UHGV virus genome: UHGV-0027446
DNA: 44,346 nt
Direction: 5' to 3' (one strand)
From: a virus
Made by a program: the position numbers and the translations under genes. Below, in pieces: positions 24,611-31,203 of the stretch. The notes below the pieces were generated by a model. The model made no database searches. It worked only from the letters and a program-made list of their open reading frames with translations, and was not told the origin of the DNA. Positions within the stretch are counted from its first letter, which is position 1; each line of letters starts with the position of its first letter.

Positions 24611-25123
24611 ATGAAGCTGAAACTCAAGCAGCCATCACCAGAGGTGGTGCAAGCTGCACATGAAGAAGCTGTTAGCGCAAACCGTCGCCGTAAACGGCCG
24701 CGCGGAAAACAGAGCCTTTATCAATCGTCCCGTAATTCTGCCGCGTTGTGGGACCCGGACTATTGCGACGAATTGATTCGATTCTTCGACCGCACGTCGT
24801 GGAAGCTTGTGCCTACGTCTAAGGGTGATGAACGCCCGCTGATTCAGGATAAACCGCCGTCTCTCGCCCGCTTCGCCCTGCACATCGGCGTCACTATCCC
24901 AATTATTAAGCTGTGGCTGCGCGAGATTCCTGCATTTGCCGAAGCCTGGGAAACAGCACAGGCGCTGGAAGAGGCGTATTTCACTGAGACAGGGGCCGCG
25001 GGTATCTCTGCTACGTTTGCTGCCGCTAAGCTGGGCCTGAATAAGAAAGAAGAATCGACTGGCGAGGGTTCTGAACCTATCGAGATTCGTTTCGTTAAGG
25101 CTGTTAAACCGGGGGGCGAGTAA
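24611..25123 (+). CDS. terminase small subunit
   Basis: Immediately upstream of and overlapping terminase large subunit; basic N-terminus and HTH-like LARFALHIGVTIPIIKLWL. Confidence 0.55.
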   Translation: MKLKLKQPSPEVVQAAHEEAVSANRRRKRPRGKQSLYQSSRNSAALWDPDYCDELIRFFDRTSWKLVPTSKGDERPLIQDKPPSLARFALHIGVTIPIIKLWLREIPAFAEAWETAQALEEAYFTETGAAGISATFAAAKLGLNKKEESTGEGSEPIEIRFVKAVKPGGE

Positions 25124-26358
25124 TGGATATTCCATTAACAGAACCCCAACAGGACTTTGTATTCAGTACAAAGACACATCCAGCTATTGTCGCTGGACTG
25201 GGGGCAGGTAAGTCCCGCGCGGCAACGATGCGCCTTTTGTATCTTATGTTGCGCGAGCGCGGGATAAACACCCTGTACACCATGCCTACGTATGACCTGT
25301 TGAAGCTGCGCGCCATCCCTGGGGTGGTTGATGACCTGAATATGATGGGGCTTAAGTATGACCTCAACAAATCGGAATACAGTATCCACGTTAAGGGGTA
25401 CGGCACTATGTTTTTCCGGTCATACGACAACCCGAACCGTCTAATCGCTTTTGAAGTGGCGCATTCTGTCGCAGACGAACTTGACGTGCTTACTAAAGAA
25501 CAGGCATCTCTGGTGTGGCGTAAGATTTCAGAGCGTACCCGACAACCATGTAGGGGTGGGAACAGTATTGCCGCCGTGACTACACCTGACCAGGGATTCT
25601 CTGGATTTGTGTACGACTATTGGGTTACTAACGCCGACAGTTCTACGGAACTGATTAAGGCATCTACATTGTCGAACCCATATTTACCTGAAGGCTACGT
25701 CGAGCAGATACGAAGGAACTACGACGCGGCTTTGGCCGATATGTATATCCACGGTGAATTTGTCAGTTTGACGGCCAATAAGGTGTATCACTATTTCAAG
25801 CGAAGCACACATGACTCCGCCCGCACCTTGCAGAACGGAGACGCTCTGCATATAGGGCTGGACTTTAACATCGGCGGCTGTTGCGCCACCGTGAGCGTTA
25901 TCGAAGACGGCAACCCGACGGTTGTTGATGAGTTTGTCAGTCATAATACCGACGATTTCGTCAATAACGTCAGGATACGGTACCCGGGCCATACGGTTAC
26001 GGTTTACCCCGACGCCTCAGGCCGCTCAGGCCACACTAACGCATCATTATCCGACATAGGTATCATCGAAAAGGCCGGCTTACGTGTTAACGCTCCAAGT
26101 AAGAACCCATTCGTTAAAGACAGAATAAACGCGGTTAACGCGCTTTTGTCACATAGCCGTTTGAGGGTTAACACTTCAAAATGCCCTAAATTAACGCAGT
26201 CACTGGAAACGCAGGGGTATAACGATAATGGCGAACCGGAGAAGTTTAAAACTCACCCGGCTATTGACGACTGGAACGACAGTTTAGGTTATTGTATGCA
26301 CAGGTTGTTCCCTGTTGTCCGCCCTGTTATCAACACTCCTGTCAGATTCGCACTTTAA
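25123..26358 (+). CDS. terminase large subunit
   Basis: Walker A GLGAGKS, Walker B VADELD, C-terminal nuclease-type acidic motifs (GLDFN...). Confidence 0.8.
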   Translation: MDIPLTEPQQDFVFSTKTHPAIVAGLGAGKSRAATMRLLYLMLRERGINTLYTMPTYDLLKLRAIPGVVDDLNMMGLKYDLNKSEYSIHVKGYGTMFFRSYDNPNRLIAFEVAHSVADELDVLTKEQASLVWRKISERTRQPCRGGNSIAAVTTPDQGFSGFVYDYWVTNADSSTELIKASTLSNPYLPEGYVEQIRRNYDAALADMYIHGEFVSLTANKVYHYFKRSTHDSARTLQNGDALHIGLDFNIGGCCATVSVIEDGNPTVVDEFVSHNTDDFVNNVRIRYPGHTVTVYPDASGRSGHTNASLSDIGIIEKAGLRVNAPSKNPFVKDRINAVNALLSHSRLRVNTSKCPKLTQSLETQGYNDNGEPEKFKTHPAIDDWNDSLGYCMHRLFPVVRPVINTPVRFAL

Positions 26359-26370
26359 GAGGATTATTCA

Positions 26371-27840
26371 ATGTTAACTATGAACGGTCAGAATCAGGGT
26401 GTTAAGATAAAACACCGGGAATGGCTGCACCACTTCGATAAATGGCAGAAGGTACGCCACGCACTGGAAGGTGACCTTATTCGCTATCTTCGCAATGTGG
26501 GGAAGAATGAGCCTGACCCGACCTACGCGGCACAGCGCCAGGAAGAATACGAGAACGGCGCTATCTGCTACAACTTCACTAAACGTACCCTGGCGGGGAT
26601 GGTTGGGTCGGTAATGCGTAAAGACCCTGAGCAGATTATCCCGCCTGAACTGGAGTACCTGTTACGTAACGCCGACGGTTCCGGTGTCGGCCTGTGGCAG
26701 CACGCGCAGGACACTCTTATGGAGATTGACTCGGTAGGCCGTGGTGGGTTGCTGGTGGACGCCCCGGAGACAGCCGCGGCAACGGCAGCCGAACAGAACG
26801 CAGGGTTATTAAACCCGGTCATCGCATTCTATACCGCAGAGAACATCATCAACTGGCGACTGACTCGCGTCGGTTCTGTTAACCGCGTGACAATGGTTGT
26901 ACTACGTGAGGTATGGGAGTACTCAGAACCTGGTGCAGAGTTCGAAACAAAATTCGGCGAGCAATACCGCGTTCTCGATTTGATTGACGGGCGCTATCGC
27001 CAGCGCATTTACCGCTTCGATGCCGAAGGTGGCGCACATGGCGACGTAAAAGAAATCTTCCCGGAACTTGGCGGACAGTTGCGCGGCAAAATCCCGTTCA
27101 CGTTCATTGGGGCAAGCAACAACGACGCAACCATTGACGACGCGCCTTTGCTGCCGTTGGCTGAACTTAATATCGGGCATTTCCGCAACAGCGCGGACAA
27201 TGAGGAATCCAGCTTCGTTGTGGGCCAGCCCACTCTGTTCATCGCCCCTGGTGAGAACATGAACACGGAACAGTGGAAAGAAGCCAACCCCCACGGCGTG
27301 CGCATGGGGTCGCGTTCAGGTCACAACATCGGCTACGGCGGCAATGCGTTTCTTGTCCAGGCGGGTGAGAACAACCTCGCCAAACAGAACATGCTGGATA
27401 AAGAGAACCAGGCCATTCAGATTGGCGCGCAGCTTATCACCCCGACGCAGCAAATCACCGCGGAGTCAGCCCGCCTGCAACGTGGTGCTGATACTTCAGT
27501 TATGGCGACAATCGCGCGTAACGTAAGCATGGCGTATACCGATGCGTTGCGTTGGGTTGCGGGTATGCTCGGACTTAGTGACGGTACTGAAATTGAGTTC
27601 AAACTGAACATGGAGTTCTTCCTGCAACCGATGACCGCTCAGGACCGTGCTCAGTGGATGGCAGACATTAACGCAGGTTTGCTACCCGCCACTGCTTACT
27701 ATGCCGCGTTGCGTAAGGCTGGTGTAACCGACTGGACAGACGAGGATATTCAGAACGCTATCGAGGACGCGCCGCTGCCGTTAGGTGCAAATACTCAGGT
27801 AGCGGGGGAGATTCCGCAGTCGGCGCAGCAACAGGAGTAA
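26371..27840 (+). CDS. portal protein
   Basis: 489-codon ORF directly after terminase large subunit; assignment by size and position. Confidence 0.6.
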   Translation: MLTMNGQNQGVKIKHREWLHHFDKWQKVRHALEGDLIRYLRNVGKNEPDPTYAAQRQEEYENGAICYNFTKRTLAGMVGSVMRKDPEQIIPPELEYLLRNADGSGVGLWQHAQDTLMEIDSVGRGGLLVDAPETAAATAAEQNAGLLNPVIAFYTAENIINWRLTRVGSVNRVTMVVLREVWEYSEPGAEFETKFGEQYRVLDLIDGRYRQRIYRFDAEGGAHGDVKEIFPELGGQLRGKIPFTFIGASNNDATIDDAPLLPLAELNIGHFRNSADNEESSFVVGQPTLFIAPGENMNTEQWKEANPHGVRMGSRSGHNIGYGGNAFLVQAGENNLAKQNMLDKENQAIQIGAQLITPTQQITAESARLQRGADTSVMATIARNVSMAYTDALRWVAGMLGLSDGTEIEFKLNMEFFLQPMTAQDRAQWMADINAGLLPATAYYAALRKAGVTDWTDEDIQNAIEDAPLPLGANTQVAGEIPQSAQQQE

Positions 27841-27843
27841 ATA

Positions 27844-27867
27844 TTAAGGCCCCGATAGGGGCCTTAA
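27844..27867. terminator. bidirectional terminator (TTAAGGCCCC-GATA-GGGGCCTTAA)
   Basis: Perfect 10-bp stem between convergent portal and nuclease genes. Confidence 0.6.
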
Positions 27868-27869
27868 TC

Positions 27870-29285
27870 TCACTTATTCCACACCAATTTCTCTTGTCCG
27901 CTATCCCATATGCGGGATACACCTTCCTCGGCGTACCATTCCGACTGAGTGAGACCCTCTGGCGCTTTGTTCCATTTTTGCCGTGATTCTGTTTTAGTCG
28001 CATTGTTTACGACGATACGGAAGCCGCATCTCACAGAAGCCTTTTTAAACCCCGCTGATAAGTATGCTTCTCCGGTAAATAAATCCCGGTCAGTGTAGGT
28101 AAAACCGTCGGTGATGCTATAACGGCGTACTGCGTAAGTCCATAGCTTTGACAGCCCTCCGACCACCGAACATGACGTAGCGTACCGCACAAGTTCCCAT
28201 TCGCCTTTTCTACACGTCAGCGTCATTACCGCGACAATCTTCTCTTCATACACAAGGCTGATATACTTCGTCGAGTTACGGAATCCTTGTATGTGGTTCT
28301 CCTCCAGAAAATATTCTGCGCGCAGTTTGTTAATCTCTTTTACATGGCATTTGCGGGCGAAAACGCGCAAAGAAGAGACGCCAACGGAATGGCTGATTAT
28401 TTTCTTTATTATTTCTTTTTTATGCAGCCATAGCTCGTCCCTTATTGACAGGAGTCGGAACCCTCTTGCCTCAACGGCAACTCTTTTCTCCATGTGATAC
28501 TTTCTCCCCTTCCCGGCAGCTTCGCTGTGCCAGTACAGGCCGTTTATTTCTATAGCCAGATTATGTTGTGGTATTAAAATATCTATCTCTCTTGGGTGGA
28601 TAAGACTTCTATCATTCCGACGATATTCCACCCCCATGCTGTCGAGAAATTCACAGACTTCATCCTCCACTTTACTACGCCCAAACGACGCACACCGCGG
28701 GCACCCTCTACCCTGAAAGATGTTACCAAGCGTAGCGGCCCATTCATGGCCTTTTTGACACCTCAGTGCCGACGGCATACGGCAGATATCCCCTGAATAA
28801 GACACCAGTTCAAAACCAGTGCCGCGTAACCTTTCCTCTATTTCGCCGATCTCAAGCCTTTTTCTGTTAGTGCTGCAATTCGGGCAATGACTTTTACCCC
28901 TTAAAACGTCGCTGCCGGTAGCGGACCAGACGAACCCGCATTTACATCTGAACGTTGATTTCCCACTGACAGCACCCGCGTAGCGAACACATTCAACCCC
29001 ATTAGGCCACTCTGCTACTTTCGCCCGTTTTTCCTCCGCATAGCATTGCGGGCAACCATGACCGTTCAGGACGGTATTAGCCTTTGTATCCCACACATGC
29101 CCCCTACGGCAGCGGAATTTAGACTTAAGTTTAGAGTGACCCGCATACTCAATTACGACTATCCCCCGTGATTCTAGTCTCAGGTTTATATCTTCTTCGG
29201 TTAAACGTCTGGACCCCATTAAAATATCCTCCACTTCTTCTTCTAGTATAAAGATTGCGCATATACATGTATCACAGCAAGACAT
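27870..29285 (-). CDS. multi-domain nuclease-like protein: three zinc-ribbon repeats + Vsr/PD-(D/E)XK-like core + C-terminal domain (homing-endonuclease-like)
   Basis: Three repeats of F(R/K)C..GH.W......(L/F).G.GCP.C; REIDILIPQHNLAIEINGLYWHS...ARGFRLLSIRD; alternative start at internal ATG 29219 after GGAGGA. Confidence 0.55.
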   Translation of the reverse strand: MSCCDTCICAIFILEEEVEDILMGSRRLTEEDINLRLESRGIVVIEYAGHSKLKSKFRCRRGHVWDTKANTVLNGHGCPQCYAEEKRAKVAEWPNGVECVRYAGAVSGKSTFRCKCGFVWSATGSDVLRGKSHCPNCSTNRKRLEIGEIEERLRGTGFELVSYSGDICRMPSALRCQKGHEWAATLGNIFQGRGCPRCASFGRSKVEDEVCEFLDSMGVEYRRNDRSLIHPREIDILIPQHNLAIEINGLYWHSEAAGKGRKYHMEKRVAVEARGFRLLSIRDELWLHKKEIIKKIISHSVGVSSLRVFARKCHVKEINKLRAEYFLEENHIQGFRNSTKYISLVYEEKIVAVMTLTCRKGEWELVRYATSCSVVGGLSKLWTYAVRRYSITDGFTYTDRDLFTGEAYLSAGFKKASVRCGFRIVVNNATKTESRQKWNKAPEGLTQSEWYAEEGVSRIWDSGQEKLVWNK

Positions 29286-29356
29286 CGCACCGCAATAAAA
29301 AAAATCCCTGAAATATTATTTCTATGCGTTACACTGTCGATACTACAGGAGGGCTT

Positions 29357-30400
29357 ATGAGCTTACTTACATCCCTAATCAGCCACCAGATATGGCTGCA
29401 ACGCACCGCATCCGGCGAAGTGAAAGACCTCGCACCGTTCATTAAGGAAATGCGGGACGAAATCAAACGGCAGGTGCTGCTATTCGGTGACGACGGTCGC
29501 AGCACTGCGCGGCTGAATAAACTGTTACACGACCTTGAAGAAGCACTAACCGGACTTACAGGTGACTGGCAAACAAAGCTAACAGAAGACCTTAAGGAAC
29601 TGGCGGCATATGAGGCTGAGTGGAACGTAAAGACACTGACGGCTAACGTTAACGCTGAATTTGTTACGCCTACCGCCGAACAGGTGTGGGCCGCTGCCGA
29701 GTTTCAGCCCTTATCGTTAAGCGACAAGCCCGTCGATTTCACTAAGCTGATGGATGGCTGGGGTGAAACAGAAGTATCGCGCCTGGTAACCGGCGTTAAG
29801 ATGGGTTTTGTGCAAGGCCAGACAACACGGCAGATTGTTAAGAATGTCGTAGGCGCTGGCGGACTGGCAGACATCTCTGAGCGCAACGCCGCTGCGGTAA
29901 TCCGCACCGCGCTGTCCCATGTATCCAACGAAGCTCGTAACGAGACGTACCGCCAGAACGACGACATCATCGAGAAATACGAATGGGTGTCAACTCTGGA
30001 CAGCCGTACCAGCACGATTTGCAGGGCCAGAGACGGAATGACGTGGGAAATTGGTAAAGGGCCGATGCCCCCCGCCCATCCGAATTGCCGGTCGTGCACG
30101 GCTCCGGTAATTAGTTCCGAGTTCGACTTCCTTGATAAAGGCGCAAAACGCGCGGCTAAGGGTGCAGATGGCGGTACTCAGGTAAGCGCAGACACAACCT
30201 ATTACGAGTTCCTTAAACAACAGCCAGCGTGGTTTCAGGACCAGGCGCTCGGCCCAGTTCGCGGTAAGATTTTCCGTAACAGCGGTATATCGCTGGAAGA
30301 GTTTCGCGTAATATCTGTAGATGGTTTCGGGAATCCGCTCACGCTTAAGCAGATGGCGGAACTCGATAAACGTGTTGCTGATTATCTGAAAGGGGAATAA
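29357..30400 (+). CDS. head morphogenesis protein (SPP1 gp7 / Mu F-like minor head protein)
   Basis: LDSRTSTICRARDGMTW...HPNCRSC signature; AGGAGGG SD before internal ATG of track ORF. Confidence 0.75.
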   Translation: MSLLTSLISHQIWLQRTASGEVKDLAPFIKEMRDEIKRQVLLFGDDGRSTARLNKLLHDLEEALTGLTGDWQTKLTEDLKELAAYEAEWNVKTLTANVNAEFVTPTAEQVWAAAEFQPLSLSDKPVDFTKLMDGWGETEVSRLVTGVKMGFVQGQTTRQIVKNVVGAGGLADISERNAAAVIRTALSHVSNEARNETYRQNDDIIEKYEWVSTLDSRTSTICRARDGMTWEIGKGPMPPAHPNCRSCTAPVISSEFDFLDKGAKRAAKGADGGTQVSADTTYYEFLKQQPAWFQDQALGPVRGKIFRNSGISLEEFRVISVDGFGNPLTLKQMAELDKRVADYLKGE

Positions 30401-30865: not shown

Positions 30866-30892
30866 AGGCCCCTTACGGGGCCTTAGTTTTAT
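30866..30892. terminator. bidirectional terminator (AAGGCCCC-TTAC-GGGGCCTT + T-run)
   Basis: Between convergent genes 30400..30861 and 30889..31203. Confidence 0.55.
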
Positions 30893-31203
30893 TTCTTTCC
30901 TAATGCTTTCTTGATTGCTCTGTCGGCCAGACTTAACGGATGGTCTTTATGGCAATTGTCAGAAGATACTACACAAACATCCTCAACGTAATCGCGAAGC
31001 TGGCGAAGAGCTTCAAGTAACTCTGGTGCCGAGGCGATAAGTTCGGCGTCGTGTTTATCATTAATTTCTTCTGCAACTGGAGTTCGGATAGTACAGCCGT
31101 ACATTTTCTTTAATGAGCCTTTCTGAAACACAAACCACTCCTGCTCGCCTTTTTCTTTCTTGAACTCCCACGGACCTTTCGTGCCTTTAAATTCATCTTT
31201 CAC
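30889..31203 (-). CDS. hypothetical protein (opposite-strand insertion)
   Basis: GTG start after GAGGAGGG SD, driven by family-B promoter; GPWEF...LIASAPELLEAL motif. Confidence 0.45.
   Translation of the reverse strand: MKDEFKGTKGPWEFKKEKGEQEWFVFQKGSLKKMYGCTIRTPVAEEINDKHDAELIASAPELLEALRQLRDYVEDVCVVSSDNCHKDHPLSLADRAIKKALGKK

Follow-up and report, generated by a model that had tools for sequence, protein, structure and literature searches.

The hef gene of the T-even phage U5, annotated in its GenBank record as a homing endonuclease gene between nrdA and nrdB, encodes an enzyme that reportedly cuts near its own locus, in Hef-containing as well as Hef-less DNA, and that most likely homes, as Sandegren et al. 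are reported to have described in 2005. Hef-type enzymes have been assigned to the Vsr-like EDxHD family, whose defining residues include the Glu, Asp, Asn and His that can be aligned with the intron-encoded endonuclease I-Bth0305I (Taylor et al., PMC3239194). Mom domains of jumbo phages that are fused to endoDNases of the restriction-endonuclease (REase) fold, five of them in phage PA5oct, were in turn predicted to combine restriction with protective modification (Iyer, Anantharaman, Krishnan, Burroughs and Aravind, 2021; PMC7824862); Mom itself has recently been found to modify DNA using glycyl-tRNA. The gene described here lies on the minus strand of the UHGV virus genome UHGV-0027446 (44,346 nucleotides, referred to as the window), between the portal gene and the Mu-F-like head-morphogenesis gene. 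With a probability of roughly 0.75, and on the basis of sequence comparison, it is read as a free-standing and intact gene for a homing endonuclease of the Vsr-like (EDxHD) family, Hef-like branch, carried as a cassette in the portal/Mu-F slot of a Kagunavirus coliphage.

The window contains a plus-strand block of terminase (small and large subunit), portal, Mu-F-like, Hoc-like decoration protein and capsid genes, and among these the endonuclease gene is the only one on the minus strand, just as the first-pass annotation of this DNA, made from the letters alone, had described it; by megablast, the region falls among Kagunavirus (Guernseyvirinae) coliphages at ~88-91 % identity, and about 240 records of the searched collection match it. 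The minus-strand open reading frame (ORF) at 27870..29285 is present and counts 471 codons from its first in-frame ATG. The start of the gene is nevertheless placed at ATG 29219 and not at 29285, because a GGAGGA Shine-Dalgarno sequence lies 7 nucleotides (nt) before this ATG, the closest homologue (P0001) was called at equal length with 100 % coverage, and the PHROG profile alignments reach no further upstream than residue 23 of the long ORF. The likely coding sequence (CDS) of 449 amino acids (aa), from whose Met at 29219 all residues are numbered here, is thus at the lower end of the 450-470 codons first claimed. The Mu-F start at ATG 29357 matches all relatives, the mechanical ORF start at 29324 being too far upstream; endonuclease and Mu-F genes therefore diverge across 137 nt (29220..29356), the short divergent region noticed previously. 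No second copy of the gene was found within the window.

The protein consists of three parts (Table 1), which were modelled with AlphaFold2 from 42 homologues at a mean pLDDT (predicted local distance difference test score) of 86.9. The N-terminal region matches Pfam DUF4379 ("probable treble clef zinc finger") in three stretches (expect value, E, 6.8e-15), and self-alignment of the three units brings out the common pattern G..V.Y.G...S..RC..G..W......L.G..CP.C. The predicted zinc ligands are C37/H41/C56/C59 in the first unit, C92/C94/C112/C115 in the second (all Cys, the His being replaced) and C154/H158/C173/C176 in the third, the first and third sharing the spacing C-x3-H...C-x2-C; across the family alignment these Cys and His positions are nearly invariant, and each unit is modelled as three short strands and one helix. 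The three tandem zinc-ribbon copies seen in the first-pass annotation are thereby retained, with the correction that its size of ~35 residues covers the conserved core only, the structural unit measuring ~55-62 residues.

The middle part is a Vsr-like nuclease core, in agreement with the Vsr/PD-(D/E)XK-like core proposed in the first-pass annotation; Pfam, TIGR, PDB sequence and Foldseek matches all point the same way. The catalytic domain of I-Bth0305I (3R3P) was the only sequence match among PDB structures (E 1.4e-3), Foldseek found the Vsr-DNA complex 1CW0 (E 2.5e-4), and the PADLOC "HEase" model matches the protein. E185, D213, N226 and H231 align with E170, D196, N208 and H213 of I-Bth0305I and are invariant or nearly so among the 42 homologues; every column that is invariant across this set is retained here. 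An identity as a Vsr mismatch-repair endonuclease was rejected, since the scores for TIGR00632 (22.9 against a threshold of 97.85) and Pfam Vsr (PF03852; 23.5-26.9 against 27) stay below the family thresholds; MTES_1575 is likewise sub-threshold. An HNH endonuclease, as the label of phrog_559 would have it, was rejected as well, because no HNH family appeared in Pfam or NCBIfam scans; as the nuclease is Vsr-like and lacks an HNH motif, the label is a misnomer. Members of PHROG 559, including U5 Hef, have a Vsr-like nuclease without an HNH motif, and annotations derived from this PHROG will be wrong.

The whole protein matches phrog_559 at 5e-97 and phrog_3339 ("homing endonuclease") at 9e-78, the latter being matched by U5 Hef at 4e-151. 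BLASTP aligns it directly with U5 Hef at 39 % identity over 168 aa (E 2e-27), an alignment that takes in the nuclease and, of the C-terminal domain, the first half. In a collection of 50,697 phage records, tblastn found relatives in 573, all below 60 % identity and the nearest at 43 %, under the annotations "Hef-like homing endonuclease", "homing endonuclease" and "nuclease/acetyltransferase"; the only closer relative, at 96 % aa identity, comes from a raw-read assembly. With no phage in the collection at 60 % identity or more, the gene is not a conserved core structural or packaging gene. Single genomes carry several copies of the family, up to 10-12 in Campylobacter phages and five in a Wroclawvirus. 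In a PA5oct-like phage this protein finds five matches, which carry the annotation "homing endonuclease", and for this reason Hef-like homing endonucleases and the Mom-REase fusions of jumbo phages are very probably, by sequence comparison, one family; no publication connecting the two was found in the searchable literature. Zinc ribbons, nuclease core, homing-endonuclease PHROG families and the match to U5 Hef jointly support the nuclease assignment made initially.

The C-terminal domain of ~170 residues, which the first-pass annotation had left unplaced, can now be assigned. It is homologous to phage Mu Mom and has the GNAT fold. Foldseek against the whole PDB ranked Mom first (E 2.3e-6), starting from a model of very high confidence in this part (pLDDT 90-98), and hhalign of 20 C-terminal domains against 18 Mom proteins gave a probability of 93.5 % and an E of 2.3e-7 over 130 columns. 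The Pfam Mom model PF25680 directly matches two of the 42 homologues (best E 7.5e-8); it has no match in this protein up to E 10, and the isolated C-terminal 170 aa gave no Pfam match at all, even at E 10. Because a comparison with one single Mom sequence was weak (probability 25 %) and the domain profile against PDB sequences found marginal GNAT matches only (E 0.5-1.1), profile-profile comparison with a Mom alignment was needed to recognise the relationship. A search of 1.84 billion cluster representatives found the Mom-like domain in 11,642 of them at E <= 1e-3, nearly always C-terminal in proteins of 450-650 aa. Short matches (~180-215 aa) were considered as stand-alone versions and rejected, all three of those inspected being fragments, two of which start within the nuclease and the third in the linker that immediately precedes the Mom-like domain.

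In the alignment, H309, R345, S357, D377 and Y386 correspond to H58, R111, S124, D149 and Y159 of Mom (numbering after PMC13219725). In Mom, changes of R111, S124 and D149 abolish or greatly reduce activity, H58A and Y159A reduce it drastically, and R151A abolishes it (PMC13219725). Among 265 near-full-length Mom-like domains from divergent clusters, H309 and R345 are conserved in all 265, Y386 in 263 (99 %) and D377 in 244 (92 %); the counterpart of the catalytic S124 is Ser in 60 %, Thr in 17 % and Gly in 12 % (Ser or Thr in 77 %), and R151, which aligns with D379, has no conserved counterpart, the position being Arg in only 30 %. R289 is also invariant (265/265), at a position for which the alignment gives no conserved Mom counterpart. 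Most likely, judging from these alignments, the Mom-like domain serves DNA recognition through a conserved pocket able to hold a flipped-out adenine. Since the Mom-type His, Arg and Tyr are invariant and the standard homing model does not account for this, the family may bind a flipped adenine or modify DNA. The further step, that the Mom-like domain of Hef-type endonucleases is catalytic on DNA and, like Mom with its glycyl-tRNA donor, transfers a group to adenine, which would turn these elements into single-chain "mark-or-cut" homing endonucleases, is considered rather unlikely. If it were true, such elements would modify the target in their own genome, or rely on covalent or base-flipping chemistry to recognise it, and would cut a competing phage's allele that lacks the modification, merging the logic of restriction-modification with that of homing.

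The site itself is polymorphic. Portal and Mu-F genes are adjacent in most relatives, ~70-80 nt apart, in agreement with the earlier proposal that the gene had been inserted between them: in a spread sample of 233 matching phage records, about 19 of 28 Escherichia Kagunavirus phages have an empty site with a gap of ~82 nt, and the remaining ones have gaps of +300 to +900 nt, some of them with inteins in Mu-F. An alignment of the junction from ten related loci resolves two intergenic haplotypes. In the empty haplotype (hz69, fEg-Eco19, LM02P1, vB_VIPECOMC04), the portal ends in ...QQQD(T/V/A)TQ(Q/P)* and is followed by the hairpin AGCCCCGAAAGGGGCT and then ~45 nt to the Mu-F ATG; in the occupied haplotype, the portal C-terminus is ...QQQE* (for the Salmonella locus, ...QQPES*), and behind it come a related GGCCCC hairpin and a cargo gene on the minus strand. 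A conserved block of ~50 nt, AAATATTATTTnTATGCGTTACACTGnCGATAC.ACAGGAGGGC, precedes the Mu-F ATG in the haplotypes with the endonuclease, with a 173-aa cargo protein and with a remnant, and only its last ~15 nt are in common with haplotypes that carry a 217-aa cargo protein. The endonuclease-specific DNA spans ~27868..29306, a cassette of ~1.44 kb that includes its own 5' leader, absent from relatives with other cargo. Neither direct nor inverted repeats (target-site duplications, terminal inverted repeats) flank the cassette, and no intron or other Rfam RNA family was found at the locus; a transposon or insertion sequence was rejected in the absence of terminal repeats, a target-site duplication and a transposase domain.

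Table 1. Positions of the endonuclease gene, its domains and flanks in the window, and cargo of the portal/Mu-F slot in related loci (L numbers).
Feature	Position	Strand	Remark
Portal gene (left flank; DUF4055, phrog_145)	26371..27840	+	C-terminal variant ...QQQE*, seen with occupied sites
GC-rich hairpin between convergent portal and endonuclease genes	27844..27867		likely terminator for both
Probable Hef-like homing endonuclease CDS, 449 aa + stop	27870..29219	-	mechanical ORF reaches 29285
Mom-like GNAT-fold domain, residues 276-449	27873..28394	-	hhalign, Foldseek
Vsr-like / EDxHD-type nuclease core, residues 183-275	28395..28673	-	PDB 3r3p, Foldseek 1cw0, invariant columns
N-terminal DNA-binding region, residues 1-182, three treble-clef zinc-ribbon units	28674..29219	-	Pfam DUF4379, self-alignment
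Zinc-ribbon units, in order	29016-29219; 28854-29015; 28674-28853	-	self-alignment
Endonuclease-specific 5' leader with Shine-Dalgarno	29220..29306	-	~96 % identical in second carrier, 3-nt indel aside
Shared block of ~50 nt	29307..29356		minus-strand promoter-like site + Mu-F Shine-Dalgarno
Mu-F-like head-morphogenesis gene (right flank)	29357..30400	+	true ATG 29357, not 29324
Cargo: endonuclease	window; Logan contig (L004)		
Cargo: 173-aa phrog_3007 protein	L003 2875-3396; L008 1849-2370		annotated "DNA polymerase III", "sliding clamp" or "RusA-like resolvase"
Cargo: 217-aa KilA-N-like phrog_6095 protein	L009, L005		annotated "amidase"
Cargo: ~890 nt with only a 64-aa ORF (phrog_16707)	L007 1819-2707 (phiWAO78-1)		occupied-type flanks

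A second carrier of the endonuclease, Logan SRR27151669 (L004), has the gene at the same site with 96 % aa identity. Between the two carriers, the endonuclease genes are 94.9 % identical in nucleotides, with a synonymous divergence (dS) of 0.18, a nonsynonymous divergence (dN) of 0.020 and a dN/dS ratio (ω) of 0.11, compared with 87.9 %, 0.67, 0.027 and 0.04 for the portal gene, 90.3 %, 0.48, 0.019 and 0.04 for Mu-F, and 89.2 %, 0.51, 0.024 and 0.05 for the Hoc-like gene. Since the dS of the endonuclease (0.18) is lower than that of its neighbours (0.48-0.67), the cassette appears to have been exchanged between the two backbones more recently than the neighbouring genes diverged. All three endonuclease domains are under purifying selection, with ω values of 0.17 for the zinc ribbons, 0.08 for the nuclease and 0.09 for the Mom-like domain; the overall ω of 0.11 and the retention of all invariant columns argue that the endonuclease is intact.

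The hairpin that follows the portal gene is strong (free energy, dG, -21.7 kcal/mol; z -6.1; none of 200 shuffled sequences as stable), carries no canonical U-tract on either strand and was not called by a terminator scan. All relatives, those with empty sites included, have a homologous hairpin behind the portal gene, and it is therefore taken to be the ancestral portal terminator and not an import that arrived with the endonuclease. Of the bidirectional terminator that had been proposed at this position, the strong hairpin stands, and the structure is ancestral to the intergenic region; that it terminates both the portal and the endonuclease gene is likely. On the other side of the cassette, a promoter-like site (TCGACA-16 nt-TAATAT, 29340..29313, minus strand) is kept in the haplotype with the 173-aa cargo. 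A sigma-70 promoter scan gave three sites against 2.2 expected by shuffling, which is not above chance; for this reason only the promoter-like site within the conserved block was used. With this site conserved across cargo types and the hairpin shared, the portal/Mu-F slot resembles a promoter and a terminator that stay in place while the cargo between them is exchangeable.

Transcription of the endonuclease gene would accordingly run leftward, from a promoter in the conserved block that immediately precedes Mu-F to the hairpin behind the portal gene. A long stretch of DNA close to the portal/Mu-F junction would be recognised by the three zinc ribbons, probably together with the Mom-like domain, and cut by the Vsr-like domain; if a relative without the gene infects the same cell, repair of the resulting break, with the carrier genome as template, would copy the cassette over. 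The gene is free-standing, intergenic and patchily distributed among close relatives, the pattern by which a Hef-like element is recognised, and the alternatives left by the first-pass annotation (a free-standing homing endonuclease or some other acquired nuclease) are narrowed towards the former by PHROG families, homology to U5 Hef and patchy site occupancy.

Several observations weigh against a homing endonuclease. The transcription signals, target, cleavage and homing of this particular protein are predicted. Unrelated and apparently non-nuclease cargo fills the same slot in other phages, so that recombination via the conserved flanks alone could move the cassette. Within 400 nt on each flank, no private bases are common to both carriers and absent from all nine gene-lacking loci, and the flanks of the two carriers resemble each other no more than they resemble the flanks of gene-lacking phages; no co-conversion tract or target-immunity signature is therefore visible. 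In the nuclease core, the place of I-Bth0305I D222, the fifth EDxHD residue, is occupied by H242, a nearly invariant His in this branch that sits in a conserved Y-H-x-x-K motif common to U5 Hef. Finally, the strict conservation of Mom-type residues is unexplained by a purely DNA-binding role.

As an alternative, the protein could be a single-chain restriction-modification-like module, in which the Mom-like domain marks phage adenines and the nuclease cuts unmodified host or competitor DNA, with a role in conflict and not in homing. Such a function was predicted for the Mom-REase fusions of jumbo phages (Iyer et al., 2021; PMC7824862), to which the PA5oct relative with its five matches provides the connection; the counterparts of Mom-essential residues (H309, R345, Y386, D377) are invariant or nearly so, and the Mom-like domain is under purifying selection (ω 0.09). 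The explanation is considered unlikely nonetheless: the counterpart of the catalytic Ser is Ser in only 60 % of the family and Mom R151 lacks a conserved one; many diverged copies per genome, patchy intergenic presence and an exchange faster than that of the flanks are traits of homing endonucleases; three zinc ribbons in tandem point to a target that is long and specific; and the family namesake, U5 Hef, carries a homing-endonuclease annotation. Very unlikely is that the gene is a moron, passive cargo at a hot spot of recombination, which is exchanged through the conserved terminator and promoter flanks and encodes a nuclease that serves the phage in some other way, such as host DNA degradation or phage exclusion, or is no longer used. 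In favour of this, no fewer than three unrelated types of cargo, plus a remnant, share one slot and the same hairpin boundary, the right block of ~50 nt also occurs with the 173-aa cargo and the remnant, the 173-aa cargo is known from a second slot, and the flanks lack a co-conversion signature. On the other side, an ω of 0.11 and the full set of catalytic residues speak against decay, the homology is to a family annotated as homing endonucleases and reportedly shown by experiment to act as such, and a function of use to the phage would hardly be missing from almost every close relative.

The other occupants of the slot differ widely. The 173-aa cargo shows a weak, sub-threshold clamp-domain match (E 0.005) and no PADLOC match, and its current labels look unreliable; other phages have it in a second slot as well, behind the Hoc-like gene. 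The ~890-nt stretch of phiWAO78-1 has no similarity to the endonuclease and may represent decayed or different cargo; remnants of the endonuclease were sought in the occupied sites of other relatives, and none were found. Paralogues with 43 % identity occur on the opposite strand at the terminase/portal junction in an Escherichia Kagunavirus (L002 4022-5401) and in a Salmonella Guernseyvirinae phage (L005/L006 4001-5380). In the Salmonella phage, the portal/Mu-F slot is in addition filled by the 217-aa cargo and Mu-F contains an intein, which amounts to three selfish or accessory elements in ~5 kb.

The neighbourhood shows further signs of exchange. Just 3' of the Hoc-like gene, the window has another lone minus-strand gene (30889..31203, 104 aa, phrog_1273, function unassigned); the stretch containing it is missing from the second carrier, and the equivalent position in vB_VIPECOMC04 and fEg-Eco19 is filled by the 173-aa phrog_3007 gene, so that the position looks like a second exchangeable cargo slot. 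The terminase large subunit genes (25123..26358) of the two carriers are ~50 % identical in DNA and are essentially different alleles, compared with 88 % for the portal gene, and the second carrier has an extra 74-aa gene between the two; the terminase/portal junction is a sharp mosaic boundary. Within the portal gene, the last 270 nt (27571..27840) have a dS of 1.03 and a dN of 0.077 between the carriers, versus 0.61 and 0.016 for the rest, and the form of the portal C-terminus tracks the slot, ...QQQE* going with occupied and ...QQQDTTQQ* with empty sites.

As a class, the gene is ordinary: it adds one more selfish endonuclease to a phage packaging and head module, from a family that annotation pipelines already label. 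What is new is a Hef-like endonuclease with an N-terminus of three zinc ribbons, at a previously unrecorded Kagunavirus site. The locus provides a clean natural example of mobility: the site can be empty or hold other cargo, and two diverged backbones have the gene in common at a dS ~3-fold lower than that of the flanks. In the Guernseyvirinae, the portal/Mu-F junction seems to serve mobile cargo as a common slot. The Mom-like domain also ties together two literatures, that on Hef-like homing endonucleases and that on Mom-nuclease fusions with a predicted restriction-modification-like role. Since its His, Arg and Tyr are invariant and Mom has been shown to use glycyl-tRNA, it can be asked in testable form whether a homing endonuclease family uses a Mom-like adenine-modifying active site or has repurposed it.

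Compared with the prototype EDxHD homing endonuclease I-Bth0305I (PDB 3R3P), the nuclease core is alignable over ~80 residues with four motif residues equal and the D222 position changed to H242. I-Bth0305I is intron-encoded and has an N-terminal NUMOD/helix-turn-helix part with the nuclease at its C-terminus (PMC3239194), whereas the protein described here is free-standing, has zinc ribbons in place of NUMOD/helix-turn-helix, and continues after the nuclease with a Mom-like domain. With E. coli Vsr it shares the nuclease fold and the arrangement of metal-binding Asp and His; it differs in domain context and in its scores below the Vsr family thresholds, and nothing in it points to a role in mismatch repair.

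Closer counterparts are U5 Hef and the Hef-like enzymes of PHROG 3339/559, among them F-LimIII, VII, VIII and X of Dickeya phage LIMEstone1. U5 Hef has the same order of a Vsr-like core followed by a Mom-like domain, belongs to the same PHROG families, and is likewise free-standing between conserved genes. The N-terminus of U5 Hef (a 544-aa protein) has no significant match to the three DUF4379 ribbons; its gene occupies the nrdA/nrdB site of a T-even phage, in contrast to the portal/Mu-F site of a Kagunavirus siphovirus, and the gene described here lies on the strand opposite to its neighbours. Mu Mom (PF25680; PDB 8BV8), a tRNA-dependent adenine-modifying GNAT, resembles the C-terminal domain in an insertion with short helices before the last strands and in the activity-critical residues that align with H309, R345, D377 and Y386; it differs in that the counterpart of its catalytic Ser is variable in the family, that R151, Y59 and the dimerisation residue W48 lack conserved counterparts, and that Mom stands alone whereas the domain is here fused to a nuclease. 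The Mom-REase fusions of jumbo phages, in turn, share the two-domain logic of a REase-fold nuclease joined to a Mom-family GNAT; they have been read as restriction plus modification, whereas in this 44-kb phage the population-genetic pattern fits a homing element.

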